Shown piece by piece: positions 2,426 to 18,616 of a stretch of 22,079 nt of DNA. Each line of letters starts with the position of its first letter. The stretch's first letter is position 1. The notes beneath the pieces were generated by a model. That model was not told the origin of the DNA. It ran no database searches and saw only the letters and a program-made list of their open reading frames with translations. Source of the DNA: Selenomonadaceae bacterium (lineage in GTDB: Bacteria > Vulcanimicrobiota > Xenobia > Xenobiales > JADMJV01); contig JBBCJA010000025.1 in assembly GCA_037189585.1 (NCBI GenBank), forward strand, positions 1 to 22,079, in the 5' to 3' direction. The position numbers and the translations under genes are program-made.

Positions 2426-5400
2426 TTAGGCAGCCGCCAGGTCGCGTCGACGTAGAGCGTCGAGAGCCAGGGCCACGTCCTCACTTTTCACCGGGCGGAA
2501 AGTTGGCGGTAGTCCGGGCCTGTGCATCAGGTCGAGCACTTCCAGTCCTCGCTGCTCGAGAACCTCGGTGATAAAGCGCACCTGCTCTTCAAGATCCGCC
2601 GCGTCCAGAGCCTGTCGGTTCTCGGCGTAGATCTCCGCGACATACTGAGCCAGGCGTTGACGGTCGAGCTCTCGATCGGCCAATCCGGAAACAAGCTCTA
2701 TCAAAAGCCACGATTCGTCCAAGGCTACGTACAGTCCACCCGTGACTTTCGCCACCGTCTCGAAGACCGCTTCGGCACCTCGGAAATTTCGAATCCCGCG
2801 GCAGCCCACCGTATGAACGGTAATACCCATCTCTCGACAGCCTTCGGCCTGAGTGTACCAGTGGCGTCCACAAGGGCAGCCCTCGGGGAATCCATCGCCC
2901 TCGGGTTCCACTCCGTGAGGAGGTGCATCCCCGACCATCACCACCAGACGGGCGGCCTCGCCATCCCAGTCCAGGTTCAACAGGTCGTGCAGTCCATCGG
3001 TGACGGCCTCCGGACCGTCTCCCCCACCGCTGGCTCGCATCCGTTGCACCGCGGCCGAAATCTCGTTCCAGTCGGAAGTCAAAGGCAGAACTCTGGTCAC
3101 GAAGGTCGCATCCTGGGGCGGATGGTCGCGGAAGGTCACCAGACCAAGCCGGAGCTCGGTGCACAGAGGAGAGCTACGCAAGACATTGATCAGCTCAAGC
3201 AAACGCTCTTGAACTTCCTGAATGTAGGGCCCCATGCTGCCCGTCTCGTCTATCAAAAAGACCAGATCGAGACGGCCAACGACGAGTTCCCGAGCTCTCG
3301 CCAGCTCCTCGGCGGAATAGAGAGCACGCTCTTTGTTGCCGGTAAGGCCAACCGGAGTTTGCAGGTTCTGACCCCTAGGCGGAGGTGGGGAGGGAATCGT
3401 CCACGAGCTGCAGGACCGCTTCGGAGGGGCGGAAGAGGCGGGAGGTTTATCATCGAAGAGGCCATGAACCGGCTCGTCCTCGCCCGAAAAGAGGCCTTCG
3501 ATGACGTAGTGGTCGACATCGAAGTTGCCATCCCCGGCGGAGGACGCACCGTCGTCGTCAAAGAGGCCTTCGGAGACGCTCAAATCCGGAGCAGCGGCGA
3601 AGGACTCGCTGTCGTCAAAGAGACTACTTTCGGAGACTGGGGAGAAAGCCGGTTCGGGAGCGGTCTCGCCGACCGCTCCGAAGAGGTCGCCGCCATCCGG
3701 GAAAGGCTCTTCGAAAACGCAATCGTCATCGACGTAAGCCTCTGGACTTGGCGATGGAGGTAGTGGCGGCGAGGCGCTTCTTAGCACCACAGTCTCGGGG
3801 AAACTCCTAGCCCCCAACATCGGGCGGTGGCCCAAAGTAGGCTTCTCCGAAGCAAAGGTTCGAGACACCAACCCCTTGCGTTCAGAGCGCGCTGAGTCAA
3901 GGGTACTCAGGCGCACCGGGCGGTCGGCCGGCGCGCTCTCGGCTCTCGGAGCCGATCTGGTCGCCGAGCGCCTCAGGCCGATGTCGGGTCCAACAGATTC
4001 CGCCGCGTCCACCGTGTGGGATGGTCCCTCGGGATCCACCGTCACCTCCTGGTCATCGGCCACCAACGCGGTGTACGGACTCATCAAGTGGTGCTTCAAG
4101 GCCAATCCCAGAGTCTCCAGGCGAACCTCGCTGAGACGCTCGGGATGGCGGACCAGTTGGTCCTGCAGCTCCTCGATCCTCTCACGAGCCCACACGCGCT
4201 CGATCCCGGGAGCTTCCTGGCTGTACTCGGGAAGGGTCAACCCCACCTCTTGCAAAAACGGTGTCCCGTCCGCGTTCGTCCCACGCACGCGTAGGGTGGC
4301 TGGGCCCTCACCGATGAATCGTCCGGTCAGTCTCAGAATCTGTCCAGAGAAAAGTTCGCGGCCGCCCCTGGGATAGATGTCCATCCCCTGCCCTTGCCCG
4401 CTCTCCACCTCCACCGTGACATTGGAGAGGATCGGGGCGGCCTGGGCCACTCTTTGGGCGAAACGCTCCAGCAGATGGGCCTCCCCACCCTGACTGACCT
4501 CAAAGGCGCCCCGGCCAAAACGAGCCAGCTTGTCGATCAGGTATCGGTTGGGCGTATTGCCCACACCCATCACGTAGAGTCTGGTGTCCTTGAGCCACTT
4601 GGGCAGTTCGCGCAGCAGCCGTCCCTCGTTTCCAACGGCACCGTCGGTGATCAAGACCGCGACCCGAGCTCGTCCATTTCCGGTCTCGGACCCCGCGGCG
4701 CGGAGCGCGACCTCAAGCTCGGTTCCTCCTTTGACCTTCTGTCCCTCGAGAAACTCCAGCGCGCGGACTTTGGAAGTCTCGTCGCAGGGCAACCACTCGG
4801 ACGAGAGTTCCAAAAGCTCGTGATGAAACGCGATCAGACGGAACCGGTCCGAAGGAGAAAGCTTGGAAAGGCAACTAGAAACAGCCTCCACAGCGGCCGT
4901 CAATCGACCAACCGAGGCCGAGAGATCGACCAAGAAAACGACGTCCTTACCTTCCGTGGTCTTCTCCTCCGGCTGGACCCTTTGATACACGCCGCAGTAG
5001 TCGCACTGCCAAGCATGACCTAATCCCGGAATCTCCGAGACCGCCTCTTTCGAACCCATGGGCGCTCCACAGTTGCCGCAACTATAGCCCTCCACGTTGG
5101 TGGTTTCCTGGGCTCCGAGCGCGACTGGGGCGGGGATGGTCAGGGCAAAAGTTCCGGGTTTGTCGAGGGCCCGCTCGTACCACACTTGTGGAAGTAGTCC
5201 CCGGTTCTGACAAGGCCAGACCAAAACGAAATCACGATTAGCGACTTTCTCCTCTGGGTCCAGGCTAACCCGAAAGCGGTCACCGTGAGTCTCGACTTTC
5301 ACCGCGTGAGAAGGGGAATAAGGAGCCGTCCGGCCGTCCACGGCCCTGAGCTCGAACTCGAGTGACACCGGACTCTGGCGCTCGGTCGATCGCGGGCGTG

Positions 5401-5932
5401 GGGGCCGGATCCGAGCGCCGTCCGCGACCTCGGTCGTTCCATGTCCCTCCGGCATGCCGGAATAGTAACGTTCGGAAGCCACCATCGGAAAAGCGAAACG
5501 CCACTCGCCGAAATCGTAAGCCACCGGTTCCTGATACTCCATCAAGACCTCGATGGTCGCGCCAGCGGAGATGTTGGCCACGGATAGAGTGAAGAGGTTC
5601 GGTCGCTCTTGCTCTAAAAGGGTGGCGGCGCGGCCTTCCGAGCGGGCCTTCTCGTAAACCCGGCGGGCCTCTTCCTTCTCTTTGACCACCGCCTTGACCA
5701 CCCGATCGGCGATGCGAAACTCCATACGGAAGACGGAGCCTTGATGGGGAAGCGGAAAGAGATAAGTGGCCTCTAAAGTCTCGTTTGTAGGGTTACGAAA
5801 ACTTTGCCGCACCTCCACCTGGGCCAGCGGTCCTCGGACCGAGGCTTTGACTTTCGTCCATTCCAGGGGAAGAACGCGCCCGTCGAGCGTCTGTAGAGTG
5901 CCTTCACTAATTCTGGGTTCAGTGGCTTGCAT
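2426..5932 (-). CDS. Large cytoplasmic VIT - zinc ribbon - vWA - disordered acidic-repeat linker - vWA (Cys-cluster) protein
   Basis: The ORF is open from a TTG at 6145, but that overlaps the upstream gene. The ATG at 5932..5930 (M72) lies 44 bp after the upstream stop and gives about 1168 aa. An ATG at 6028 is an alternative start. The VIT domain is aa 80-230 with the hallmark TYLFPLP. A CxxC-x20-CxxC zinc ribbon is at aa 357-384. vWA-1 has MIDAS DLSASVG at aa 405. A Ser/Pro-rich, acidic disordered region spans aa 700-940. vWA-2 begins LVFLIDETGSMG at aa 961 and has an inserted CPCGRHWYTQAEGCREMGITVHTVGC cluster. There is no signal peptide. Confidence 0.8.
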   Translation of the reverse strand: MQATEPRISEGTLQTLDGRVLPLEWTKVKASVRGPLAQVEVRQSFRNPTNETLEATYLFPLPHQGSVFRMEFRIADRVVKAVVKEKEEARRVYEKARSEGRAATLLEQERPNLFTLSVANISAGATIEVLMEYQEPVAYDFGEWRFAFPMVASERYYSGMPEGHGTTEVADGARIRPPRPRSTERQSPVSLEFELRAVDGRTAPYSPSHAVKVETHGDRFRVSLDPEEKVANRDFVLVWPCQNRGLLPQVWYERALDKPGTFALTIPAPVALGAQETTNVEGYSCGNCGAPMGSKEAVSEIPGLGHAWQCDYCGVYQRVQPEEKTTEGKDVVFLVDLSASVGRLTAAVEAVSSCLSKLSPSDRFRLIAFHHELLELSSEWLPCDETSKVRALEFLEGQKVKGGTELEVALRAAGSETGNGRARVAVLITDGAVGNEGRLLRELPKWLKDTRLYVMGVGNTPNRYLIDKLARFGRGAFEVSQGGEAHLLERFAQRVAQAAPILSNVTVEVESGQGQGMDIYPRGGRELFSGQILRLTGRFIGEGPATLRVRGTNADGTPFLQEVGLTLPEYSQEAPGIERVWARERIEELQDQLVRHPERLSEVRLETLGLALKHHLMSPYTALVADDQEVTVDPEGPSHTVDAAESVGPDIGLRRSATRSAPRAESAPADRPVRLSTLDSARSERKGLVSRTFASEKPTLGHRPMLGARSFPETVVLRSASPPLPPSPSPEAYVDDDCVFEEPFPDGGDLFGAVGETAPEPAFSPVSESSLFDDSESFAAAPDLSVSEGLFDDDGASSAGDGNFDVDHYVIEGLFSGEDEPVHGLFDDKPPASSAPPKRSCSSWTIPSPPPPRGQNLQTPVGLTGNKERALYSAEELARARELVVGRLDLVFLIDETGSMGPYIQEVQERLLELINVLRSSPLCTELRLGLVTFRDHPPQDATFVTRVLPLTSDWNEISAAVQRMRASGGGDGPEAVTDGLHDLLNLDWDGEAARLVVMVGDAPPHGVEPEGDGFPEGCPCGRHWYTQAEGCREMGITVHTVGCRGIRNFRGAEAVFETVAKVTGGLYVALDESWLLIELVSGLADRELDRQRLAQYVAEIYAENRQALDAADLEEQVRFITEVLEQRGLEVLDLMHRPGLPPTFRPVKSEDVALALDALRRRDLAAA

Positions 5933-5975
5933 TTCCACAGCTTCGAGCTTGAAGCGATCGACCCCTTGACCAAAA

Positions 5976-7211
5976 TCAACGTGCGACGACTTGAAGACTA
6001 TGGTAGATCTCACCGCTTTGAATCTCATTAAGAAACGACTCTCCGCGCAGACGTTCCCGTGTCGGATAGCTCTTGAGATACTCGTGAGCGCGCACGACGA
6101 GCGCTCGGTCGCGCACCTTGTCGGCGGCTTCGGTGAGATCCTCAAAATAGAGAGGGTAGTCCGCTCCCAAATATTCCACCACCGGAGGTAGAGGGTTCAC
6201 CAAAATCGGCGTGGTTCTCGCGATACATTCCACAATCGCGTTGTTCGCCGAGGAGTCGTAAAGGTGAACGAAAGCCACGTTCTCGCTCAGCCAGCTATCA
6301 TACTCCTGGTTGGTTAGCCCCACCACGCGACGGACGTTGGTCCAGTCGGGAGTTCCTTCGTGGGAAAGGATCAACTGGAAAGTGTCTTCCAACCCCTGCA
6401 GACCCGAGGGCACAAGCCAGATCTTCTCATAGTCGTCATAGACCGGCAGGTCAAAAATGCTGATCAGCCGGCGCAGCCACCATCCCACCTGAATAATTTT
6501 CGGCGAGGTGTTCTTGAGGAAGCGTTCCGGATCAAATTGCGCCTCGGGAAACTCCGTGGGGTGCAAGACGACTTCCACCGGTTTCCCTGTCCTCTCGCGC
6601 AGCCAAGTCGCCAAGTATTCCGACAGAGTGTAGAACCCCCGACAGTTCGGGAGACTCTCCTGGAAGGCGGGATGACTAAGAATCTGCTCTGGAGAGCCCG
6701 TACTTAGAGGATACCAGGACGGCATCTCCAGCGGATTGTGCAGAAAGCCGACCCAGTCGCGCCGATAGGGCGGCTTTCGGCCTTCCCAACATCGGCCCGC
6801 GTAACGCGCCATGGCGAAGCTGTTTTCCAAGAAGCCGTCGAGCAGAATTCCACCTTCGTTATGCAAGGGTCTCAAATGGTGCAGCGCGTAGGCCCAGCCA
6901 CTTCGATGGTGGGAAAAGCGCCGCTGACGGCGCAGGCAGAAGCGCCCCTCCGGATGGTTCACCAACTCATTGTCGGCCAGGACCTCTTCACACAGTTCGC
7001 TCAGCATGAAGAACTCCGAGTGGTCCTTGGGATAACGCCGGCAGATCTCGAGTGACTCCTGGGCCTCGCCTTCCATCAGAAGAAGCTCCGCCAGAAGCCT
7101 CCAGGCCGGTTCGTACCCGGGCTCTTTTTCCACCACCTGCCGACAGGCGGCGATCGCGGTGGGCAGGTTGCCCTTGGCGGCCCAGGCACGAGCTAAGATA
7201 AATCCTTTCAT
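5976..7211 (-). CDS. TPR-repeat protein with C-terminal domain of unknown function (possibly GT-B-like fold)
   Basis: The protein is 411 aa with an ATG start at 7211 that overlaps the upstream stop (ATGA). The N-terminus has TPR-like helices (ARAWAAKGNLPTAIAACRQVVEKEPGYEPAWRLLAELLLMEGEAQ). The C-terminal block LYDSSANNAIVECIARTTPILVNPLPPVVEYLGADYPLYF resembles the nucleotide-sugar-binding half of GT-B glycosyltransferases. I saw no sulfotransferase PAPS motifs. Confidence 0.5.
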   Translation of the reverse strand: MKGFILARAWAAKGNLPTAIAACRQVVEKEPGYEPAWRLLAELLLMEGEAQESLEICRRYPKDHSEFFMLSELCEEVLADNELVNHPEGRFCLRRQRRFSHHRSGWAYALHHLRPLHNEGGILLDGFLENSFAMARYAGRCWEGRKPPYRRDWVGFLHNPLEMPSWYPLSTGSPEQILSHPAFQESLPNCRGFYTLSEYLATWLRERTGKPVEVVLHPTEFPEAQFDPERFLKNTSPKIIQVGWWLRRLISIFDLPVYDDYEKIWLVPSGLQGLEDTFQLILSHEGTPDWTNVRRVVGLTNQEYDSWLSENVAFVHLYDSSANNAIVECIARTTPILVNPLPPVVEYLGADYPLYFEDLTEAADKVRDRALVVRAHEYLKSYPTRERLRGESFLNEIQSGEIYHSLQVVAR

Positions 7212-8281
7212 AACAAAGTTTCCAAGAGACGCGGCACCGCTTCGACATCGCTGCCCAACTCTAAAACATAGGCCGGCGCCTGCCGCAAAATCGTGGCCAT
7301 TCGCGCCAAACTGGCCTGCCCGGTGCCGGCAAGTTGAAACAGGGTTGTCGGCGCCAGGGCCAAAAGAGCCGCTGACCCGGACAATTCCTGAAGTCGACTC
7401 TCCCTGGCTTGGACCGGCGGTATGCGAGGTACGACGACCGCCTTAAGGGGAGCCTCGTTCAATACCTGTTGGGGCCGATGAGCGTGAACGTCCAGCAGAA
7501 TCTTATCTCCTTCCTCGCGTTGCCGATTCTCCACCGCGGCCGACCACTCGGGGAAACGGTCAAGGTCCATCTCTCCGACCAGTTTGGCCGTGCCGTAGAG
7601 ACACCAGATGCGCCCCTGTCCAGCCAGGCAGTAGTCGTCGGCCAGGTAGCCCATCCCGGCTCTAAGACACGACAGAGCCGTGCTGGACTTTCCCGAGCCC
7701 CCGGCCCCGGTCAGAAGTATGGCGCCGTCGGCCGAACCGACCGCCGCGGCGTGGAGATACTGCAGTCCCTGTCCTTCGGCCCACCAGTTCAGGATCGTCT
7801 GTAGTGGTGAACCCAACTCCCAATAAGGGATCTTCTTCGCGTCCTCGACCCAGTAGAGAGCCTGAGCTCTCTGTCGATCCAGGACACTCAGGATTTTGCA
7901 TGGCCCCTGACGATAGACGGTGAAAATCCTGTCGTCATTGAAACCTCTCAATTCGTGCCTGGCGTCTAGGGCCTCATAGATCGAATGATTGACGGCCGAG
8001 AAGAGAGCGCGCACCAGCAGGGGCAGATAGCGACCTTCTCCCCCACCGTCCCAAAGGGAGACAGTTAAGGAAGGAGAGGCATCGATCTGTTTCACTTTCC
8101 AAGGGCGAAGAGCTGGTACCAGGCGCTCCAAAGGCTCAGCCCCGGCACTCAGCAGACTGATCGTTTGTCCACCTAAAGCTCCGTCCCAGCGAACCTGCCC
8201 CAGCTCCGTCTCGGCCTGACGATACGTCCGAGAGAGAATGTCAAAAAACTCGACTCGTTCCTGTTCCACAGTGAAGGTCAA
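7208..8281 (-). CDS. HprK-related P-loop kinase (HPr kinase/phosphorylase C-terminal-domain homologue)
   Basis: ILLTGAGGSGKSSTALSCLRAGMGYLADD matches the HprK Walker-A/kinase core (vLitGpSGsGKSelAL..rGh.LVaDD). There is no in-frame ATG near the 5' end. The start is TTG at 8281, overlapping the GT2 stop as TTGA, or GTG at 8269. The stop overlaps the next gene's ATG. Confidence 0.7.
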   Translation of the reverse strand: MTFTVEQERVEFFDILSRTYRQAETELGQVRWDGALGGQTISLLSAGAEPLERLVPALRPWKVKQIDASPSLTVSLWDGGGEGRYLPLLVRALFSAVNHSIYEALDARHELRGFNDDRIFTVYRQGPCKILSVLDRQRAQALYWVEDAKKIPYWELGSPLQTILNWWAEGQGLQYLHAAAVGSADGAILLTGAGGSGKSSTALSCLRAGMGYLADDYCLAGQGRIWCLYGTAKLVGEMDLDRFPEWSAAVENRQREEGDKILLDVHAHRPQQVLNEAPLKAVVVPRIPPVQARESRLQELSGSAALLALAPTTLFQLAGTGQASLARMATILRQAPAYVLELGSDVEAVPRLLETLL

Positions 8282-8982
8282 GTTAGAGACTCCTGAACCT
8301 GACGACGCCTTCGCAAGGCGGCCAGGACGACCTTGGCATAGTCTTGCCTGGCCTCCGGCTTCAAGCGACCCGAGTTGTGAGCGTGCAAGCGGCGCCGAAG
8401 AACCAGTTCCGGTAAGAGCGCGAAACGCGCCCCGTTCTCTTGCGCCCGCAAAACCCAGTCGACAAATTCCGCTGCCCGATACTCGGGGGTGAAGAGCCCC
8501 GTTCTTTCAAAAACTGAACGCCTCACCATAAAAGTCCCAGGCAGCTGGGCCTGCTGACGACGCGAATCGTGCGGGAATACCCCAGGAGGGTCGCTAAACT
8601 GCTCCGCCTCTCCAAAAACTCCATCGAATTCCGGTCGCGAGGACAGATAGTTCCATCCGGCGGTCAAGCGGCCCGGCAACATCAAGTCGTCAGCATCCAT
8701 GAAGGCCAGCCACTCTCCGAGTGCCGCCTTGACTCCAAGATTTCTCGCCGCGCTGGCGCCCAGATTGTCCTGACGAAAGCATTGTACCCGCGGAAACTCT
8801 CGAGCTATCTCGAGAGTCCCATCAGTGGACCCGTCGTCGATGAGCAAAATCTCCCTCACGGGAGAAACGCTGGCGAGAACGCTCTCAAGGCATGCTCGAA
8901 GATACTTTTCCCCGTTATAGACTGGAATAATAACGCTAATATCGAGCATATTCAGCGACTCTAAGACGCGACGGTAGGCCAT
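8278..8982 (-). CDS. Family-2 glycosyltransferase (GT-A fold)
   Basis: ISVIIPVYNGEKYLRACLESV...ILLIDDGSTDGT...FRQDNLGASAARNLG...FMDADD carries the canonical GT2 motifs, including DxD. The start is ATG at 8982 or at 8949, and it overlaps the PqqD-like gene's 3' end. Confidence 0.75.
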   Translation of the reverse strand: MAYRRVLESLNMLDISVIIPVYNGEKYLRACLESVLASVSPVREILLIDDGSTDGTLEIAREFPRVQCFRQDNLGASAARNLGVKAALGEWLAFMDADDLMLPGRLTAGWNYLSSRPEFDGVFGEAEQFSDPPGVFPHDSRRQQAQLPGTFMVRRSVFERTGLFTPEYRAAEFVDWVLRAQENGARFALLPELVLRRRLHAHNSGRLKPEARQDYAKVVLAALRRRRQVQESLT

Positions 8983-9401
8983 CCCTCGGCGGCGACGTCG
9001 TGAACGGGGTCCAGAAGAAGAAGACCTTCCATATCCTCGTGGCGAGCCAATACTGGCGGATGGAATTTGAGTCTGTCCCGAGTGTGGCCAGCCAAAGTCT
9101 CGTGCTGTTCGAGCACCGGCCCCTCGCTGAGCAGCCCCTCGGAAACCAGCTCTGTCAGAAATGTCTCCACCGCTCCAAGAGCCTGATCCTGTTCGACATC
9201 GTAACTTTCTAACAATAGCCCGCTCAGGGCGTGAGCGGAAAGCGACTGTTGCAAACCAGCCCAGATCAAAGCTCCCGCATCGGTCAGGCTATAATAGTGA
9301 CCCATCTTGAGGTTGACGACGACAACCTCCCCGTCGAGTGTTTCATGAACCACATCGTCCGAATTTATAACGAACCCCATCGGCGAAGTTTTAACCTCCA
9401 T
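8961..9401 (-). CDS. PqqD-family / RiPP recognition element (RRE)-like protein with C-terminal extension
   Basis: FVINSDDVVHETLDGEVVVVNLKMGHYYSLTDAGALIWAGLQ...DVEQDQALGAVETFLTELVSEGLL is the PqqD/RRE signature, a beta-strand then winged helix. The ATG at 9401 has an AGGAAT Shine-Dalgarno 9 nt upstream. The ORF could extend to an ATG at 9458. About 55 extra C-terminal residues follow the domain. Confidence 0.65.
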   Translation of the reverse strand: MEVKTSPMGFVINSDDVVHETLDGEVVVVNLKMGHYYSLTDAGALIWAGLQQSLSAHALSGLLLESYDVEQDQALGAVETFLTELVSEGLLSEGPVLEQHETLAGHTRDRLKFHPPVLARHEDMEGLLLLDPVHDVAAEGWPTVAS

Positions 9402-9456
9402 AAGATCGATTCCTGGCTCGCAGGTCGGAATTCCTTGATGTTGAACGAGGCGACCC

Positions 9457-11154
9457 ATGGTCGGCCGACTTCTACAACTTCTCGACAGTCGTGGTCGACG
9501 GCAGGCCGTGCTGTTAGCCCTTCTCAGCGCGGCCTCGGCTGCTCTGGAGTTAGGGGCGGCCGCCAGTATGGTGGCATTTATGTCAGCCGCCGCGCGTCCC
9601 GACCTTTTGAGCCGTGTTTCCTACTATCAGCATCTTGGGCAGCCCAGCCTCTCGAGCTTGATGATCGGGCTAGGAGTTCTTTGTCTGGTCACCTTGTCTT
9701 CGAGCAATCTTCTGATGAGCCTATGTAACCTGCTCAGCCTGAAGTTTTCTCATGAACAGCAACGCCGCCTGTCGACCCGCCTCTTTCGTCTCTACCTCAA
9801 CCAGCCGTACGAATGGCACCTGCGCCGGCATCCGTCAACGCTTGTTTATCACCTCGGTCAGGCTCGCCAGCTCGCGCCCCAGGGCTTTCTACCGCTTCTC
9901 CAGATCGTTTCTCGTTTTTTTGGCATTCTGGTTCTCGTGGGCGCGCTGCTCAAACTCCGCCCTTTGGTCACGATCGTGGGACTCCTGACCCTAGCGGTCA
10001 TCTATGCGGGAGTCTTCCGTTTCTGCCGCAAACGCTCTCTTGCGACCTACGCGGCGGAATGGGACATCGAGCAGTCGATGGGTCGAACAATAGCCGAGCC
10101 GATGGTAGGGATGCGAGATGTTCGTTTAGCCGCGGGTGAGTCGAGCTACGAAAGCTCCTACTCCGAGCAGCTTGGCGGGATCGCCGAGCAGCAGCGCACA
10201 CGACTGTTCTACTCGGAGGCTCCCCGACTCTTCTTGCAAACCCTGGTCTACTCCGTGCTGCTGGGCTCCGTCGTCCTCCTGGCTATTCTCTATGAAGATG
10301 GAGCTAAAGTGGTGGCTGAGGCGACCTTTTATGCCATCATCGCCTATCGACTGTTGCCGCTGGTTCAGCAAGTTTTGTCGAGCCTGTCGCAACTCGAGCA
10401 CGGAGAGACCATCGAGCGGATGCTTCGCGATGAGCTCAAAGCCTCCATCGCGACCCTCCCCCAGCCGTCGAAGTCGGCGCGACCGCTGGACCGAGAGTGG
10501 AGCTTGCGTGATGTCGACTTCTCTTACGACGACAGGTCCCCCCTCTTTCGAAATCTCAACTTGATCATTCCGCGGGGAGCGTGCATCGGAATCGCGGGTC
10601 CCAGCGGGCACGGGAAGACGACGCTGATCAATCTGCTGATCGGGCTGTTGACTCCTCAGCGAGGAGATATCTTAGCCGACGGGCGTCCCCTCGAAGGCTC
10701 GGAACTTCGCGCCTTCTGGACAACAGTGGGATACGTCCCCCAGGACATCTTTCTGACTGATAACAGCCTGCTCCACAACATCACGCTGGGACAGCCCCTC
10801 GACCATGAACGCGTCCGGGAGGTCGCCAGGCTTTCTCGGCTCGATGAATTCGCCGAAACGCTCCCCCAAGGTTACGAGACAAAAATCGGAGACCGAGGGT
10901 CACGCCTGAGCGGCGGCCAGCGTCAACGACTCGGTATCGCGCGAGCGCTATATCGCCGACCGAGCATCCTGGTTCTCGATGAAGCCACGAGCGCGTTGGA
11001 CCGCGGCCTCGAGGCCGATGTTATCGCTACCATTCGAAGTCTGGCCGGAACCCACACTATTCTCATGGTCGCCCATCAAAGAGCTAGTTTGAACTGTTGT
11101 GACCGCATCTACCGCGTGGAGAAAGGAGAGCTATCCCCCGAAGATGAGCTCTGA
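9457..11154 (+). CDS. ABC exporter, fused transmembrane and ATP-binding domains (peptide-exporter type)
   Basis: The protein is 565 aa. The N-terminal half is hydrophobic with about 6 TM segments. The C-terminal NBD has Walker A GPSGHGKTT, signature LSGGQRQR, Walker B ILVLDEATSALD and an H-loop. A GAGG lies 6 nt upstream of the ATG at 9457. Confidence 0.85.
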   Translation: MVGRLLQLLDSRGRRQAVLLALLSAASAALELGAAASMVAFMSAAARPDLLSRVSYYQHLGQPSLSSLMIGLGVLCLVTLSSSNLLMSLCNLLSLKFSHEQQRRLSTRLFRLYLNQPYEWHLRRHPSTLVYHLGQARQLAPQGFLPLLQIVSRFFGILVLVGALLKLRPLVTIVGLLTLAVIYAGVFRFCRKRSLATYAAEWDIEQSMGRTIAEPMVGMRDVRLAAGESSYESSYSEQLGGIAEQQRTRLFYSEAPRLFLQTLVYSVLLGSVVLLAILYEDGAKVVAEATFYAIIAYRLLPLVQQVLSSLSQLEHGETIERMLRDELKASIATLPQPSKSARPLDREWSLRDVDFSYDDRSPLFRNLNLIIPRGACIGIAGPSGHGKTTLINLLIGLLTPQRGDILADGRPLEGSELRAFWTTVGYVPQDIFLTDNSLLHNITLGQPLDHERVREVARLSRLDEFAETLPQGYETKIGDRGSRLSGGQRQRLGIARALYRRPSILVLDEATSALDRGLEADVIATIRSLAGTHTILMVAHQRASLNCCDRIYRVEKGELSPEDEL

Positions 11155-12301
11155 CCAGACCTATCCGTTCTTTCCTCAAAAAGATGCGCTCGACTTATTA
11201 AGGGCGGCCCTCGACCCCGATCATCAAAGAGCCCATCAGGCCTGGCTACGCTGGAGACAACTCCACACGCTTCAAGCCTGCGACATCAAGATGAACCGCC
11301 TGATGCCGCTCATCTATCGTCGCTTTCAGCAGGGCGGCCTGGATCCCGACGACCACAGAATCTTAAGAGGGGTTTACCGGTACAACTGGACCCGAAACCA
11401 GCTGGCCCTACGCCAAGCGCGGACGGTCTCCCTACAGCTCCAGGCGGCCGGAATCCAGGTCTTACTTCTCAAGGGGCTCCCGCTCATTCTTGACTACTAT
11501 CGCGACCTAGGTGTCAGGCCTATGTGGGATTTCGATCTTTTAGTCCATCCGGAACGTCAACGAGAAGCGCTAGAACTTCTGTCCAGGCTGGACTGGCATA
11601 ACCACGAGCCTTGCCACGAGGTATGGATAGGCCACGCCTGCGGGTTGCAGGGTCCCGGCAACATCTCGCTTGACCTTCACTGGTTCGTCATGCACTCCAG
11701 TCGTTGGGAGGGCGCCGACGACGACTTTTGGGAGCGTTCGGAAAAGCTCTCGCTTCGCGAGCCCGGTAAAGAGCTGGGTGGTCCCGTCGTGAGGGCTCTT
11801 TGCCCCGAACACCAGCTCATCCATGTCTGTATTCACGGAGCTCGCTTTGATTCGAACCAGGACCTCGGCTGGGTCAGCGACGCTTATCACATCCTGACCA
11901 ACCGAGAGTTGGACTGGGAGCTCGTCCTCGAATCGGCGAAGCGGCACCGAGTTGTCTCGGCCCTTCACCTGGCTCTGTCTTACCTGTGCGACAAACTGCA
12001 TGCCCCCGTTCCCGAGGCTGTGATGGTGCGGCTTGGCGCTGCCCCTAAAACCTGGAGCGACCGACTCTACTTTCATCTCGCGGTCAAAGGGGGTCCCCTG
12101 AATTTCTGGTTGATGCCGGTCCTCGACTATCTGCGCTGGCAGCCCCAACCGACTCTTCTCAACTTCCTTGAATATCTTCGCCAACGCTGGTTTCTGGCCA
12201 GAACTTTCCACATTCCGTTCTCGGCCGCCCAGCGAATAGCGATGCGTGCCGTGAAATGGGCTCAGAATCGAATCTCGGCGGATTCGAAGCCCTCTCGCTG
12301 A
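11144..12301 (+). CDS. Uncharacterised nucleotidyltransferase (PF14907-like, lasso/HprK-cluster-associated family)
   Basis: LLLKGLPLILDYYRDLGVRPMWDFDLLV fits the Pol-beta-superfamily motif G..x..D.D of the uncharacterised nucleotidyltransferase family. The ATG at 11144 has AAAGGAGAG 14 nt upstream and overlaps the ABC gene's end by 11 bp. The ORF is also open from 11099. Confidence 0.6.
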   Translation: MSSDQTYPFFPQKDALDLLRAALDPDHQRAHQAWLRWRQLHTLQACDIKMNRLMPLIYRRFQQGGLDPDDHRILRGVYRYNWTRNQLALRQARTVSLQLQAAGIQVLLLKGLPLILDYYRDLGVRPMWDFDLLVHPERQREALELLSRLDWHNHEPCHEVWIGHACGLQGPGNISLDLHWFVMHSSRWEGADDDFWERSEKLSLREPGKELGGPVVRALCPEHQLIHVCIHGARFDSNQDLGWVSDAYHILTNRELDWELVLESAKRHRVVSALHLALSYLCDKLHAPVPEAVMVRLGAAPKTWSDRLYFHLAVKGGPLNFWLMPVLDYLRWQPQPTLLNFLEYLRQRWFLARTFHIPFSAAQRIAMRAVKWAQNRISADSKPSR

Positions 12302-12329: not shown

Positions 12330-12368
12330 GATGGCTTTTCTTCGTCAGAAAGGGCCATCTTGCTATGA
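12330..12368 (+). other. 12-codon upstream ORF (MAFLRQKGPSLL*) whose TGA overlaps the ATPase ATG (ATGA)
   Basis: ATG at 12330 is preceded by GGAG at 12316-12319 and AAAGGAG at 12323-12329. The stop at 12366-12368 overlaps the ATPase start at 12365-12367 in the +1 frame. Confidence 0.3.
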
Positions 12369-15055
12369 ATTCCCCTCCTGTCTCTTGGCATAGCCTTGAC
12401 TTTTTGGCTGTGGCCGAGAGTCAGAAGAGTTCTCTTGAGGGCCTGTCTCGCGAACAAGCGCGACAACGCCTGAAGACTCATGGCGCCAACGAGCTTTCCT
12501 CATTGCCTCCCCCAAACGCCCTTTGGGTGCTGTTACACCAGTTCCAGAGCCCTCTCATCTATATTCTTTTGGCGGCCGCGGTGGTGACCTTTCTGCTGGG
12601 AGACTACGCCGACTCGACACTGATCCTGGTAGCGGTCAGCCTGAACGCGGTCATCGGCTTCATTCAAGAATGGAAGGCCGAACATTCCGCTCGAGCCTTG
12701 ATGAAGCTGGTCTCGCCCAAGGCTCGGGTTGTACGCGATGGAAGGGAGCAGACCATCGAAAGCAAGGGACTTATTCCCGGGGACGTGGTGCTCTTGGAAT
12801 CCGGTGTTCGGACGCCGGCCGATCTCAGACTTTTCCAGACCACGACTCTTGCCATCAACGAATCGACTTTGACCGGAGAGTCGATTCCAGTCCACAAAGG
12901 GACCGAGGCGGTGGCCGAAACCGCTCCTTTGGCCGAAAGGCGCTGCATGGCCTACGCCGGAACCGTGGTCACCGCCGGGCGTGGCCGAGGGATCGTTGTC
13001 ACCACGGGAGCCAGAACGGAGCTTGGCACCATCGCCGCGGTGGTCCGAGAGGAAGTCTCGCCAGAAAGCCCGTTGCAACGGCGAATGACTAACTTCGCCC
13101 ACGTCATCGGATATTCCGTCGGGATCGCCGCGGTTTTGGCCTTTGTCGTCGGCATAGCCTCGGGAAAGACAGCTTCCGAGATGGTCCGTGTGGGAGTGGC
13201 GCTTGCCGTGGGAGCGGTCCCTGAAGGCTTACCGGTGGTCTTGATCATCACCCTGGCTTTGGGTGTTCGGCGCATGGCCAAACGTAACGCTATCGTACGA
13301 CGTCTTCCCGCGGTAGAGACTTTAGGTTGTACCAGTGTCATCGGGTCCGACAAGACAGGCACCTTGACGGAAAACCGAATGACCACCATGGATCTGTGGA
13401 CAAGCGATGGGTTCACCAAGGCTCCTTCGGAACGCACCTCGCCGGAGCATCTGGCCTCTCCTTTGAGAGAGACTCTAGAAGCCGGGGTCTTCTCGAACGA
13501 GGCCGAGGTCGATTGGTCCTCCGAGGAGCTCTCCGGTGACGGAGATCCCACCGAAACCGCCCTCTTAGTGGCGGCCTACAAGTTTGGTCTCGAGCCCGCC
13601 CAGGCGCGCCAGCAATGGAAAGAGATCGCGACCATCCCGTTTGAGTCCGAGCGCCAGTTCGCGGCCAGCATCCGCCGCGCTGACGAGGGAGATATACTTT
13701 ACGTCAAAGGTGCTCCAGAGGTGGTGTTAGGCATGTCCAGTCGGCTCCGTAGCGCCGACGGAACGACCGATCTCGATCCCGAAGCCGTTCTGAAAGCCGC
13801 CGACGAAATGGCTTCCAATGGATTACGGGTCTTGGCCATGGCCCGCGGTCGCGCCGAGCTCAAAGGAGAGGGAGGCGAGGTCCTGCCTCCTCGAGAGCTG
13901 ACCTTTCTCGGCTTGCAGGGTATGCTGGACCCTCCCAGGGCCGAGGTCAAAGACGCCATCGAAGGCTGTCGTCAAGCCGGGATCCGGGTGGTAATGATCA
14001 CGGGCGATCATGCACGGACAGCCGTCGCCATCGGAGCGAAGCTAGGCATCGGGGGTGACAACCCCGAGGTATTGACGGGGCGCGAGCTCGACGCCATGTC
14101 CGAAAAAGAGCTACAGGAGCACGCTGAGACGGTCTCGATTTTCGCCCGCGTCTCTCCTCAACACAAGCTGCAGGTGGTCCACGCTTTGCGCGCTCTCGGT
14201 CACGTGGTGGCCGTGACGGGTGACGGGGTCAACGATGCTCCTGCTTTGAAAGCCGCCGATATCGGGGTGGCGATGGGCAAGAGTGGAACGGACGTGGCTC
14301 GTGAAGCCGCGGACATGATCCTGGCCGACGACAATTTCGCCAGTATCTATGCCGCCGTCCACGAAGGTCGGGTGACCTTTGCCAATGTTCGCAAGGTCAC
14401 GTTCTTTTTGGTCTCCACCGGAGCCGCCATCGTCATCATGCTGTTGGCGGCTCTGGTCCTCGGCTGGCCCCTTCCCGTACTTCCCGCCCAGATTCTTTGG
14501 ATCAACCTGGTCACCAGTGGCCTGCAGGACTTAGCCCTGGCCTTCGAGCCGGCCGAGCCCGGTCTCGATGAGAAACCTCCCCGTGATCCCAAAGAAGGGG
14601 TTGTCTCCAAGCTGCTGTGGGAGCGTACGGTGTTGGCGGGCTTCGTCATGGCTATCGGGACCCTGGCCTTGTTCCGCTGGGAATATCTCCGTACGGGCTC
14701 TTTGATAGAGGCCCAAACTATCGCCCTGACCAGCCTGGTTATCTTCATGTTCTTTCACGTGGGGAACGCCCGCTCCGACACCCGCTCACTTTTGCAGATC
14801 AGCCCCATCTCTAACCCACACTTGTTTACGGTTTCGGCGGTCTCCCTCGCGGTCCACGTCGGATGCCTTTATTTCGCTCCGACTCAAGCCTTTCTGTCGG
14901 TTCATCCTCTGGATCCCCCAGCTTGGATAAGGTTGATCGCGGTCGCATCCTCGATCCTCGTGGTCGTGGAGGCTCACAAATGGATCCGGCGGCGTTGGCC
15001 ACTCGAAGGCTCTTTTCGTCAGCGCGAGCGCAAGCACCGGGCCTGGCCCTCCTAG
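12365..15055 (+). CDS. P-type cation-transporting ATPase, P2 (Ca2+-ATPase-like) subtype
   Basis: The protein is 896 aa. It has TGES, the phosphorylation site ICSDKTGTLTENRMT and the hinge TGDGVNDAPALKAADIGVAMGKSGTDVAREAADMILADDNF. It has 10 predicted TM helices and an N-terminal cation_ATPase_N helix. Confidence 0.9.
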   Translation: MNSPPVSWHSLDFLAVAESQKSSLEGLSREQARQRLKTHGANELSSLPPPNALWVLLHQFQSPLIYILLAAAVVTFLLGDYADSTLILVAVSLNAVIGFIQEWKAEHSARALMKLVSPKARVVRDGREQTIESKGLIPGDVVLLESGVRTPADLRLFQTTTLAINESTLTGESIPVHKGTEAVAETAPLAERRCMAYAGTVVTAGRGRGIVVTTGARTELGTIAAVVREEVSPESPLQRRMTNFAHVIGYSVGIAAVLAFVVGIASGKTASEMVRVGVALAVGAVPEGLPVVLIITLALGVRRMAKRNAIVRRLPAVETLGCTSVIGSDKTGTLTENRMTTMDLWTSDGFTKAPSERTSPEHLASPLRETLEAGVFSNEAEVDWSSEELSGDGDPTETALLVAAYKFGLEPAQARQQWKEIATIPFESERQFAASIRRADEGDILYVKGAPEVVLGMSSRLRSADGTTDLDPEAVLKAADEMASNGLRVLAMARGRAELKGEGGEVLPPRELTFLGLQGMLDPPRAEVKDAIEGCRQAGIRVVMITGDHARTAVAIGAKLGIGGDNPEVLTGRELDAMSEKELQEHAETVSIFARVSPQHKLQVVHALRALGHVVAVTGDGVNDAPALKAADIGVAMGKSGTDVAREAADMILADDNFASIYAAVHEGRVTFANVRKVTFFLVSTGAAIVIMLLAALVLGWPLPVLPAQILWINLVTSGLQDLALAFEPAEPGLDEKPPRDPKEGVVSKLLWERTVLAGFVMAIGTLALFRWEYLRTGSLIEAQTIALTSLVIFMFFHVGNARSDTRSLLQISPISNPHLFTVSAVSLAVHVGCLYFAPTQAFLSVHPLDPPAWIRLIAVASSILVVVEAHKWIRRRWPLEGSFRQRERKHRAWPS

Positions 15056-15220
15056 AGACCCAACCGGAAACCCGGACCGAGCCAAGCGACGGACATTTCG
15101 GGCAGGCGGAATTGGATGATTTTGCGTAATATCGGGAATATTTGGCAACAATCAGACGATTTCGCATGCACGATAATGGACGAGCTTGGCGACGGGAGGG
15201 TTTCCGGTTGGGTCTCTAGG
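15051..15220. repeat. MITE-like element with a perfect 23-bp inverted repeat flanking a 124-bp AT-rich core, bounded by CTAG
   Basis: 15051-15073 cctagagacccaaccggaaaccc is the exact reverse complement of 15198-15220 gggtttccggttgggtctctagg. A nested inner inverted repeat gccaagc/gcttggc lies at about 15081-15087 and 15184-15190. The element fills the convergent intergenic space between the ATPase and PP2C genes. The ATPase TAG stop lies inside the left arm. Confidence 0.5.
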
Positions 15221-15221
15221 C

Positions 15222-16019
15222 CTAATCCTCTCCGTGAAACAAGACCAGCAACGCGATGTTGTCCTGACCTCCCGGATGACCGTCGACTCCGTCGAGCGCC
15301 GCTTGCGCCAAACTGGTGGCGAACCGACTCGCCCTCCGTTCTAACGCCCCTTGAGGTAGGGACTCCCACAAGTTCTCGATATGGTGTGACAGCAACGAGG
15401 TCTCAGGCTTTCGATAGTGGCACTCGTCGAGCCCATCCGTGTGGAGTGCCAAAAGAGTTCCAGGCTCCAAGGTTAGCTCCACCTGTTCCCACACGTCCGG
15501 ATAGGAAAGCCGGTCCAAGCGCGCATACTCGTTGTTGTGCTGATTGTGGACCGTCCAGCCGGCCTTGGAAAGGGTGGCCAGCGTGCTGTCGCCGGTGGTT
15601 AAAGCCAGCACATAGCCCGACCGCGCGTCGTAGAGCGCCACGATGAGGGTCGTCCCCGACATGACCGGTTCGTACGGTCGCTGAATTTGAAGACATAGCT
15701 CCATCAATTCCCTTCGAGCCCCTTCCTCTCCAGGGCCCATAGAAGGGAAATCTCTTTCCGCCAACCGCTCCAGAAGCCGGTGACTAGCCTCCAAACCGAA
15801 GTGAGAGTCCGCCACCGCCAGAATGTAGAGGTCGCCATGGCGCTTGACCAAAAGCGCGTCCTCGTTGGGGCGGCTCTTGTCGGCCTTGAAGGCGAGCGAC
15901 GGGCTGTCGGCGTCGGCGCCGACGGAAAGACAAGCGGTGACCGGTCCGAGGGAACCGTGGGAGATTTTACCGTACTCGATGTGGTCATGCCCCAGCATCA
16001 AGAGAACATCGGAATTCAC
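15222..16019 (-). CDS. PP2C-family Ser/Thr protein phosphatase
   Basis: The motifs RPNEDA, YILAVADSHFG, LALTTGDS, LHTDGL and GGQDNIALLVL match the PPM metal-binding Asp motifs. The start is GTG at 16019 or ATG at 15998. Confidence 0.75.
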   Translation of the reverse strand: MNSDVLLMLGHDHIEYGKISHGSLGPVTACLSVGADADSPSLAFKADKSRPNEDALLVKRHGDLYILAVADSHFGLEASHRLLERLAERDFPSMGPGEEGARRELMELCLQIQRPYEPVMSGTTLIVALYDARSGYVLALTTGDSTLATLSKAGWTVHNQHNNEYARLDRLSYPDVWEQVELTLEPGTLLALHTDGLDECHYRKPETSLLSHHIENLWESLPQGALERRASRFATSLAQAALDGVDGHPGGQDNIALLVLFHGED

Positions 16020-16073
16020 CGGCTGTCCAGGCTTCCATAAGACCGGAATTTACCGTGGGAACTCATCTCGAAC

Positions 16074-16289
16074 CTAATGAAGAGTTCCCCTTATCAATGG
16101 AATGAGCATCAAGATTGTTATGCCCACGAAACTAAATCCCCAGAGAGACCAGAACAGACGGGGATTGTCCGTCCGGCTGACCCAGCCGCTTTCCCGAATG
16201 TAGCCGTGTACCGGTATTCTTCCGAGAATAGCACCAACCACCAAAAGAGCCTGAAAAACCAGGAGAATCATCATCATCTCTTTCGTCAT
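16074..16289 (-). CDS. Small two-TM membrane protein (hypothetical)
   Basis: MTKEMMMILLVFQALLVVGAILG...WSLWGFSFVGITILMLIPLI has two hydrophobic helices. The longer form from 16358 would overlap the AI-2E gene. The region is lower in GC than its flanks. Confidence 0.4.
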   Translation of the reverse strand: MTKEMMMILLVFQALLVVGAILGRIPVHGYIRESGWVSRTDNPRLFWSLWGFSFVGITILMLIPLIRGTLH

Positions 16290-16338
16290 ACGCTCATCTT
16301 CGTCACGCCTAGAAAATTGTCCCACAACGGATACTTGT

Positions 16339-17415
16339 CTAACCCGCCACGGTTCCATCGGGCTGGGGAGGCTCGACTGTGCTCTCAGGATTCTCGGGTG
16401 GAACCGATTCGGGAAGAGTGACTGGGGTCGGCTCCTGTCCCTCCGTCAGTTGTCTCATGCGATGTTTCCACACTTCAAGCAAGGCCGCGGTGGTGGCGAG
16501 GATCACCGGCCCCAGGATGATACCCGAGGCTCCGAACCATCCTACCCCGCCGATGACTCCGAAGAAGGTCATCAAAGGGTGAAGCTGCATGCGAGGCCCG
16601 ACGAGAAACGGGTACAGCACGTTGTCGATGGTGGAGACCACCAGGACGCCCCAAGCCGCCAGGAGAATTCCCTTCCCGACGCTTCCGCTCCAGATGAGAT
16701 AGACCGCGGCGGGAGCCCACACGAGAGCCGCGCCGAGAAACGGCAACAGCGCCAGTACGCTCATGACCATAAACCACAAGAGCGGAGTCGGAAGTCCCAG
16801 CCACCAGAACATCAAGCCGCCCAAACCGCCCTGGATGGTGGCCAGCATCAGACGTCCCCAGATGGTCGCATGAAGAATGTCGGAAATTCGGCTCGTGATC
16901 TGATCGAACTCCTCTTCGGAGAGGGGAAGCCAGGAGCGCAGATAGTCCACCATCAGCTTTCGGTCCCGAAAGAAGAAAAAGAGGCAGAAAGCGGCCACCG
17001 GGAGCTGAGTGACCGCGTTGAGCGAGTTCTTTAAAAGACCCGGGATACGACCGGCGACCTGTCTCAAGCCGTCCTGCACGTCGAGGTACTGACGTAGCGG
17101 GATCTCCTTCCACGGTTCATGCTCGATCCAGTATTGAATGGCGAGGGTCGCTTGCCGCACCAGGAGATCGCTTGCGATCCAAGCGGGAAGGATCAAAATG
17201 CAAGCTACCAGCATAACCGAGATCCCGGCCGCCACATTCGGGTTGTGCATTTTTCGGCTGAAGAAGCGATGAAGCGGACTTCCCACCACGGCGAAAGCCA
17301 GCGCCCAGGCCATGGCGGAAAGAAAGGGAGTCAAAAGCTGATAGCAGCCATACAGTGCCGCCACCACCATGGCGCCGAGGAAGATATAAGAGGCCGGCTG
17401 CCTGGTTTGATTCAC
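16339..17415 (-). CDS. AI-2E family (UPF0118/PerM-like) transporter
   Basis: The protein is 358 aa with 7-8 TM helices and the family's typical layout. The conserved C-terminal half reads ...GLPTPLLWFMVMSVLALLPFLGAALVWAPAAVYL...VVSTIDNVLYPFLVGPRMQLHPL. The GTG start overlaps the upstream stop (GTGA). Confidence 0.7.
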   Translation of the reverse strand: MNQTRQPASYIFLGAMVVAALYGCYQLLTPFLSAMAWALAFAVVGSPLHRFFSRKMHNPNVAAGISVMLVACILILPAWIASDLLVRQATLAIQYWIEHEPWKEIPLRQYLDVQDGLRQVAGRIPGLLKNSLNAVTQLPVAAFCLFFFFRDRKLMVDYLRSWLPLSEEEFDQITSRISDILHATIWGRLMLATIQGGLGGLMFWWLGLPTPLLWFMVMSVLALLPFLGAALVWAPAAVYLIWSGSVGKGILLAAWGVLVVSTIDNVLYPFLVGPRMQLHPLMTFFGVIGGVGWFGASGIILGPVILATTAALLEVWKHRMRQLTEGQEPTPVTLPESVPPENPESTVEPPQPDGTVAG

Positions 17416-17678
17416 CCGGGAAACTCCTCGTAGGCCTGAGCCCAGCGTTCGAGGTCCTGAGGCTCCATGTGCTCCATCGTCTCTTGAAAAACCAGCAGCC
17501 CCGTCCTCTCAAAAGCATAGATGTAAGCAGGGTCCGCTCCGTTATCACGCATCGCCTGAATCATCTTATCCCTGGTCTTGAGGTCGTGCTCGGCCAACCG
17601 CCGGCCGAATTCGGCTCGGGCCATTCGTTCCAACTGGTCCTGGGCGTTCTCTTTATCACTGCTATCCTGGTGGCTCAT
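17412..17678 (-). CDS. Hypothetical soluble protein (88 aa), translationally coupled to the AI-2E transporter
   Basis: The ATG at 17678 has AGGGG 4 nt upstream. It is helical and charged, with no recognisable motif. Confidence 0.45.
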   Translation of the reverse strand: MSHQDSSDKENAQDQLERMARAEFGRRLAEHDLKTRDKMIQAMRDNGADPAYIYAFERTGLLVFQETMEHMEPQDLERWAQAYEEFPG

Positions 17679-17709
17679 TCGCCCCTATTTCCCAGAGAGC
17701 TCGAAGGCC

Positions 17710-17741
17710 CCTCGCGATACAGGCGGACTCTTCGCGATACA
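17710..17741. promoter_or_regulatory. Two direct repeats c(c/t)TCGCGATACA spaced 20 bp apart in a divergent promoter region
   Basis: 17710-17721 is cctcgcgataca and 17730-17741 is cttcgcgataca, matching at 11 of 12 positions. They lie between the divergent starts at 17678 (-) and 17824 (+). Confidence 0.3.
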
Positions 17742-17823
17742 TCCCAAGCGCGGAGCCGAAAGGCCCCAATTCCACGCCGCACTTAACGAATATGTAACAT
17801 CAAGAAGATAGGATACACGCCAT

Positions 17824-18579
17824 ATGCGATATCTATTGATCCTATTCTTCTTGTTTTCCATTCCCGCCCTGGCTGAGCCCTACTATATGAGCATCGCGCG
17901 GGATCTCGAATTGACCGGCGACATAGCCTCCCACTCCGACGACTCCGACATGCGGATGACCTGGGTCTACAATCACCCCTCGTGGCTCGTGGAGGAAGGG
18001 CTTCGCGTCTTTTTAGAAGACGGCGAATACGGCCTGGAAAAGGTCGAGAAAGCGCGTTCCGACACTTACATGGAGAGCCGTTGGCTGGTCCAGGGTCGTA
18101 AGCAGATTCCCTTCACTTTAGTCGGTGCCGAGCAGATCCGGACCAAACTCAGCGCGCGCATCAAACCACTCGAGGAAAATAAAACCGAGGTGGTTTTTAA
18201 CGTCGCCTTGCAAGTTCAAGACAAAGACAGAATCAGTAGCGGCTGGGTGGATCGCGGCGAGCGGCTAGCTCGAGAGTATATCTGGATCGCGGCCAGCTCC
18301 ACCGGCGTTTCCACGCGATACCCCGATAATAAAGCGATCTTCAAACCCTTGTTGGCCGACTACAAAGCGGGAAAGCGACACGGAGTGAAAGGCTACGAGC
18401 TTCCACCCCGACAGACCGCTCAAAAGCCCCCGGAACAAAATCCAGCTACTGGAGCCAGCCAGCCAGCTAGCGGCGGAAGCTCGCTTGCCGAGGAGATCAA
18501 AAAGCTTAAGGATCTCCTCGATGCCGGCGCGATCACTCAAGAAGAGTACGACGCGGCCAAGGCCAAGCTGCTCAAGTAG
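17824..18579 (+). CDS. Secreted protein with C-terminal SHOCT domain
   Basis: The signal peptide is MRYLLILFFLFSIPALA. The C-terminus SLAEEIKKLKDLLDAGAITQEEYDAAKAKLLK is a textbook SHOCT motif. The ATG at 17824 has AGGA 11 nt upstream. Confidence 0.6.
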   Translation: MRYLLILFFLFSIPALAEPYYMSIARDLELTGDIASHSDDSDMRMTWVYNHPSWLVEEGLRVFLEDGEYGLEKVEKARSDTYMESRWLVQGRKQIPFTLVGAEQIRTKLSARIKPLEENKTEVVFNVALQVQDKDRISSGWVDRGERLAREYIWIAASSTGVSTRYPDNKAIFKPLLADYKAGKRHGVKGYELPPRQTAQKPPEQNPATGASQPASGGSSLAEEIKKLKDLLDAGAITQEEYDAAKAKLLK

Positions 18580-18616
18580 CCTGGAAATCGGTTTTCCCCC
18601 AGGAGAGCTTCTCACC

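Follow-up and report, generated by a model that had tools for sequence, protein, structure and literature searches.

A 170-bp hairpin element between convergent ATPase and phosphatase genes with the anatomy of a MITE-like insertion at CTAG

Several bacterial MITEs (transposable elements of the miniature inverted-repeat type) form hairpins over their whole length, such as ERIC (127 bp, flanked by TA), Correia (104-157 bp) and Nezha (130-170 bp) (PMC3184786). ERIC and Correia elements alter the decay of mRNAs via RNase E or RNase III (PMC3184786, PMC2649163), and the copy number of prokaryotic MITE families can be as low as one per genome (PMC10969869). Repeats of the REP/BIME and SPRITE type also form hairpins, favour the spacers between convergent genes and are presumed to have a role at mRNA 3′ ends (PMC3184786). 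Here we describe a 170-bp element at positions 15051-15220 of contig JBBCJA010000025.1 from a Selenomonadaceae bacterium (assembly GCA_037189585.1), located between the convergent genes for a P-type cation ATPase and a PP2C/SpoIIE-type phosphatase. The stretch analysed, called the window in the following, comprises positions 1 to 22,079 of this contig. It probably adds a new member to the hairpin-forming MITEs that are already known from bacteria. It resembles ERIC, Correia and Nezha in its size, in its terminal inverted repeats and TA-containing flanks, in being non-coding and intergenic at the 3′ ends of genes, and in forming an imperfect palindrome that is expected to fold in mRNA. It differs from them in that there is no sequence similarity, that one copy is known and that its internal loops consist almost entirely of purines on one strand.

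The element is bounded by a perfect 23-bp inverted repeat, as a preliminary description of this DNA had proposed. The left arm (15051-15073) has the sequence CCTAGAGACCCAACCGGAAACCC and is the exact reverse complement of the right arm (15198-15220); no strand is assigned to the arms. The core between them (15074-15197, + strand) has the length of 124 bp given before. It is itself palindromic, though imperfectly, around the apical loop CGGGA (15133-15137), and the bases of its internal loops are nearly all G or A on the + strand, with three tandem GA/GA loops and eight GGA motifs. Imperfect pairing continues beyond the 23 bp (arms of 37 nt pair at 84%), and the whole 170 bp folds into a single hairpin with 66 Watson-Crick and 1-2 G.U pairs and with the pentaloop CGGGA at its tip. 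With 170 bp and terminal inverted repeats the element lies within the size range of MITEs (below about 500 bp).

Folding of both strands as RNA, which had been suggested as a check, resulted in a long hairpin on each of them, with −108.8 kcal/mol for the + strand (z = −12.7) and −90.3 kcal/mol for the − strand (z = −9.8). None of 200 shuffled sequences came close to either value, and the element is by a wide margin the strongest inverted repeat of the window. A chance origin of the hairpin, considered in the preliminary description as a fortuitous structure, is therefore excluded. The sequence was also reproduced at 100%, with no mismatch, by two contigs of the independent Logan assembly of SRR27999909; together with the imperfect arms this rules out a palindrome generated as an assembly artefact. 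Two figures on base composition had to be revised: the window has a GC content of 59.3% rather than about 65%, and the core, previously called AT-rich, has 51.6% (54.1% for the whole element). Since another spacer of the window (16000-16350) has an equally low GC content of 44-53%, the value for the core is ordinary for a spacer at this locus.

The gap between the stop codons of the two convergent genes is filled exactly by the element. The gene for the ATPase (12365-15055, + strand, 896 aa) is intact and has its stop codon inside the left arm, while the gene for the phosphatase (15222-16019, − strand, 265 aa) ends with its stop codon (15224-15222) 2 nt outside the right arm. Both proteins have C-termini of the expected kind: the phosphatase ends 4-6 residues past the conserved GGQDNIALL motif, as in five relatives, so that its C-terminus is regarded as native, and the ATPase ends in a basic tail of ordinary length compared to its homologues. 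When the element is taken out with a single copy of TA or CTAG, ...TCCTAGGCCTAATCC... results, in which both genes are unchanged and their stop codons are 2 nt apart. This reconstructed empty site can also be written ...TGGCCCTCCTAGGCCTAATCC... or CCTCCTAGGCCTAAT and reads ...TCC TAG GC CTA...; the junction predicted from the reconstruction joins ...GGCCCTCCTAG to GCCTAATCC.... The ATPase stop TAG (15053-15055) does lie inside the left CTAG, as noted before, and it survives in the empty site. An insertion would therefore not define the 3′ end of the ATPase gene, as had been claimed; the stop codon would be part of the target.

CTAG is present at both ends of the element, at 15052-15055 and at 15216-15219, without strand assignment. 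Both are putative target duplications, either of the four base pairs or of the central TA (15053-15054 on the left side). In the 22-kb window CTAG is scarce (24 occurrences versus 80 expected from base composition and 41 from a Markov model), so that a repeat ending in this tetranucleotide is not trivial. The left arm can be parsed as C, CTAG and an 18-bp repeat, or as CTA followed by the 19-bp repeat GAGACCCAACCGGAAACCC. If TA was duplicated within CTAG, as for insertion sequences (ISs) of the IS630 type, the repeats are symmetrical, 19 bp long and begin with GAG. If the complete CTAG was duplicated, as in the IS5 type, they have 18 bp and start with AGA (AGACC). Both possibilities lead to the same empty site.

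IS630-family elements are described as inserting into TA, which is duplicated, with CTAG as the preferred, classical target (Tenzen & Ohtsubo 1991, as it appears in the reference list of PMC2170065). The locus is like insertions of IS630/Tc1-mariner elements and their MITEs in that its 19-bp repeats are symmetrical when the TA of C-TA-G is taken as the flank, and unlike them in that a transposase gene with such ends was not found in the window. IS5 also targets CTAG, with duplication of four bases, and the repeats of the IS5 group typically begin with G. A CTAG duplication of this kind would give the observed flanks; however, the repeat would start with AGACC rather than with G, and no cognate IS was found in the window. 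The IS5-type duplication put forward in the preliminary description is thus in agreement with the flanks but is not specific, as an IS630-type duplication of TA accounts for the same site. The right CTAG supplies a second in-frame TAG (15218-15216, − strand) two codons past the stop codon of the phosphatase gene.

The element is absent beside relatives of either flanking gene. On three contigs that encode relatives of the phosphatase (59-69% identity), a different convergent gene follows 1, 27 and 30 nt after the stop codon. Beside relatives of the ATPase (about 60% identity) the next gene is 57 nt away or overlaps. These spacers of 0-57 nt are too short for the element, and neither a long inverted repeat nor similarity to the element was found on the contigs of the relatives (about 36 kb in all). 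Because the corresponding sites have almost no spacer and no long hairpin, the 170 bp are a lineage-specific addition that was not inherited with either gene. The closest homologue of the ATPase is 61% identical, and its best relatives (57-61%) stem from other phyla (Vicinamibacterales, Chloroflexota, Acidimicrobiia), so to judge from its relatives this gene may have been acquired horizontally. The closest relative of the phosphatase is 69% identical; its named relatives belong to the Planctomycetota, and to judge from the names of these distant homologues the host would probably be a planctomycete as well.

A contig from a closer relative (L015, from ERR7179831) shows 89% nucleotide identity across 16338-18609, the region of an AI-2E transporter gene. 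Synteny is lost at the AI-2E stop (16338, corresponding to position 2226 of L015), where a gene of the 2Fe-2S type replaces a 94-aa open reading frame (ORF) and the phosphatase gene. Since L015 diverges before the site, it says nothing on the presence or absence of the element. Because this divergence is complete at the AI-2E stop, the segment with phosphatase gene, element and ATPase gene is rearranged between close relatives.

Considering the exact fit from stop to stop, the intact genes after removal and the spacers of 0-57 nt beside relatives, we favour with moderate confidence the view that the locus carries a non-autonomous, MITE-like foldback element. It would comprise 160-162 bp plus a duplicated TA or CTAG and would have inserted at a CTAG that overlapped in part with the abutting stop codons of the two convergent genes and otherwise lay between them. 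A DDE transposase encoded elsewhere may have mobilised it, either of the IS630 type with duplication of TA or of the IS5 type with duplication of CTAG, and the terminal repeat GAGACCCAACCGGAAACCC would be the sequence recognised by this enzyme. The element would be transcribed at the 3′ ends of both the ATPase and the PP2C mRNA and form a hairpin of about 66 bp. Such a hairpin would most probably act as a barrier that limits read-through between the convergent genes and blocks 3′-exonucleases. By analogy with Correia and ERIC elements, the perfect 23-bp basal stem is a plausible site for RNase III (PMC3184786, PMC2649163).

Several results weigh against a MITE-like insertion. No transposase gene is present in the window; ORF annotation and RNA scans revealed no integrase gene and no tRNA either. 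The proposed duplication, TA or CTAG, flanks both ends, but CTAG is itself palindromic, and on each side the repeat extends one base further (C...G). On a single copy a duplication is therefore inseparable from an extension of the palindrome itself. The 18-bp repeats bounded by CTAG that were described before are one of two parses of the sequence. A second copy was found neither in the 22-kb window nor in 5.3 kb more of the same genome (27 kb). The DNA collections that we scanned did not return the window itself, as the source genome is not among them, and they yielded no further copy. The exact 19-mer of the repeat had six matches in 596 Gb of species-representative (GTDB) genomes, six in JGI metagenomes and one in IMG/VR, all of them single arms in unrelated contexts. 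The number of matches fits the chance expectation, and several fall inside the same coding genes. A gapped pattern with both arms had no match in IMG/VR, and blastn of the element against the PLSDB plasmids gave no match.

Searches at the protein level were meant to catch spurious or extended ORFs annotated over other copies. The concatenated six-frame translation had no match at E≤10 among 5.8 billion proteins, and the fully open −1 frame gave one low-complexity match and nothing meaningful in an exhaustive scan of 1.84 billion representative proteins. The element has no coding capacity with relatives, and the ORFs that cross 15051-15220 are spurious. A close relative with the empty site was not found for comparison either: relatives of the ATPase are at most 61% and those of the phosphatase at most 69% identical, and L015 diverges earlier. 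Thus the anatomy of the element agrees with the MITE-like nature proposed in the preliminary description, while no route led to a second copy or to an empty site.

The short-read data add one observation on copy number. The k=31 Logan assembly of SRR27999909 breaks in the left arm, where contig SRR27999909_30058 ends at 15088 and contig SRR27999909_60825 starts at 15063, with an overlap of 26 nt. Such a break (region 15059-15092, CCCAACCGGAAACCCGGACCGAGCCAAGCGACGG) would result from a short exact repeat, about 34 nt long, that also occurs at a second locus, but a local gap in coverage at the hairpin would explain it equally well, so that the support for a repeated element is weak. Contig SRR27999909_60825 crosses the core and the right arm unbroken, which also counts against a mobile family: no near-identical second copy of these parts was therefore abundant in the sample.

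A further point against a purely selfish origin comes from the imperfections of the stem, which are strongly biased between the strands. Purines account for 25 of the 29 bases that stay unpaired in the stem on the + strand (binomial p = 1e-4). Mismatched positions of the two arms comprise 11 purine.purine (mostly G.A and A.G, including the three tandem GA/GA loops), two G.U and one U.U, with no A.C. A neutrally decaying palindrome should accumulate mostly transition mismatches (G.U and A.C), and purine.purine and pyrimidine.pyrimidine mismatches should be equally frequent. Given these counts, the pattern is not that of a decaying repeat, and more than selfish spread has therefore shaped the sequence. 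The + strand fold is also more stable than the − strand fold by 18.5 kcal/mol as RNA and by about 10 kcal/mol as DNA (−62.9 versus −53.2 kcal/mol). Judged from the sequence, these features point to the folded + strand (the sense of the ATPase mRNA) as the target of selection, which could have acted either here or on a family's master copy. A K-turn was ruled out, as the stem contains no 5x2 loop.

Such a bias could also mean that the element is a functional, strand-specific structured nucleic acid and no passive relic of a transposon. The active form would be either RNA, as a rod of about 170 nt, or DNA in single-stranded form, and on the ATPase-sense strand its stem would be broken up by loops of purines only (G.A/A.G) and by GGA motifs. 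As a 3′-end element it would belong to a class not described so far, perhaps as a platform for protein binding or as a mobile element that is recognised as a folded single strand. We consider this rather unlikely.

The same imperfections bear on another explanation, in which the hairpin is a locus-specific, non-mobile structured 3′ region. The RNA hairpin of the + strand would have been selected as a stabiliser or processing site at the transcript end and as a buffer between the convergent units, possibly after a local inverted duplication. The three GA/GA loops are stabilising in RNA, both folds are extremely stable, the position between the convergent stop codons is exact, and no other copy was found in the collections searched, all of which would be in agreement with this idea. 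However, a region of this kind is not conserved beside relatives of the ATPase or of the phosphatase, and a hairpin of 170 nt far exceeds what is needed for termination or stabilisation. Furthermore, perfect 23-bp ends that finish in the rare CTAG are not predicted by such an origin. No match at gathering score was obtained with Rfam in the window, and none at E≤10 in 14900-15400; the structured RNA that had been considered as an alternative in the preliminary description is therefore supported to some extent by the strand-biased mismatches, but not by Rfam. There are also no terminator-like sites in 14600-15700, and the flanks GGCCCTCC and GCCTAATCC are without runs of A or T. Altogether we regard a non-mobile 3′ region as a possible but doubtful explanation.

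Hairpins in the space between convergent genes are also typical for REP/BIME and SPRITE repeats and for bidirectional terminators, and in this respect the element is like them. Unlike REPs (20-40 nt) and terminators (short GC stems followed by U-tracts), it has 170 nt and a U-tract on neither strand. A canonical bidirectional intrinsic terminator, which had been named as another option, is therefore not supported. We also rejected 6S RNA (no central bubble, no Rfam match), retrons, bridge RNAs and omega RNAs (no gene for a reverse transcriptase, recombinase or TnpB nearby), and dif or parS sites (size and sequence do not fit). Inspection by eye for an IHF site and for a sigma-54 promoter gave nothing convincing.

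The GGA motifs led us to consider a small RNA gene that is transcribed independently from a promoter of its own, for instance for an RNA that titrates a protein by presenting GGA motifs, like the RNAs that bind CsrA/RsmA. GGA occurs eight times on the + strand versus once on the − strand, and a count of eight is reached by 3.8% of mononucleotide shuffles; the apical loop is CGGGA, and one sigma-70-like match lies inside the element, though on the − strand. However, a promoter upstream on the + strand is missing, and the coding region of the ATPase abuts the element. A terminator and a match in Rfam are lacking as well, most of the GGA motifs are placed in 2x2 internal loops and not in exposed hairpin loops, and conservation could not be demonstrated. 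A small RNA gene is thus very improbable.

The difference in stability between the DNA folds of the two strands would also be expected for a site that acts as folded single-stranded DNA, either as a lone attC-like site without an integron or as the end of another mobile element that is recognised as a hairpin; the strand bias would then reflect the choice of the strand. The R boxes of attC sites follow the consensus RYYYAAC (R″) and GTTRRRY (R′). In the element, ACCCAAC (15058-15064) and GTTGGGT (15207-15213) fit these patterns in the orientation of R″ and R′, and attC sites share the position at the 3′ end of genes. We estimated a chance of about 2% for both motifs to occur in a 23-bp arm. 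This match is nevertheless of low significance, as it was found after several kinds of motifs had been tried. The putative boxes lie inside the perfect 23-bp stem and are followed by nine perfect pairs with no unpaired central spacer, pairing extends 7 bp outside the boxes, unlike in attC sites, and with 156-170 bp the site is longer than a usual attC. The window contains no second site, no comparable inverted repeat, no cassette array and no integrase gene, and the neighbour is a 2.7-kb ATPase gene and not an ORF of cassette size. We therefore give the attC-like site hardly any credence.

The significance of the favoured MITE-like insertion depends on whether further copies exist. If so, the element would stand for a MITE family not described before, from a lineage that has been sampled poorly, and for a clean case of insertion precisely between abutting convergent stop codons, by which both genes receive a structured 3′ end. 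The loops made up of purines could then be used to ask whether such elements are under selection at the RNA level. If the element is truly single-copy, it is an unusually large locus-specific hairpin with a strand bias that needs to be explained functionally. Either way there is little practical consequence, namely a spot at which assemblies of this organism from short reads are prone to break.

Some features of the neighbourhood are described here for completeness. The stretch upstream of the phosphatase gene (16020-16340) has the lowest GC content of the neighbourhood (44-53%) and holds the 94-aa ORF (16074-16358, − strand), whose hydrophobic product has no match in Pfam. On contig L019, an ORF of identical length lies immediately upstream of the phosphatase homologue; therefore the ORF probably encodes a real small membrane protein that is paired with the phosphatase. 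The hexapeptide SGWVSR is common to the right arm and this ORF, which we regard as a coincidence as there is no similarity at the DNA level.

More distant parts of the window encode signalling and adhesion-like proteins that are unrelated to the element. The gene at 139-1416 (− strand) encodes a 425-aa fusion of a Ser/Thr protein kinase with a response-regulator receiver domain. A VIT and multiple-VWA protein of 1239 aa is encoded at 2426-6145 (− strand), followed by TPR and unannotated ORFs. Between these genes and the ATPase gene, positions 8278-12301 comprise a divergent cluster with genes for a family-2 glycosyltransferase, a PqqD-like protein, an ABC exporter and an NTP_transf_5 nucleotidyltransferase, which recalls loci for peptide maturation, similar to those for ribosomally synthesised and post-translationally modified peptides (RiPP-like). 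A 24-bp sequence is repeated twice in tandem at 9347-9395, close to the divergent starts of this cluster.

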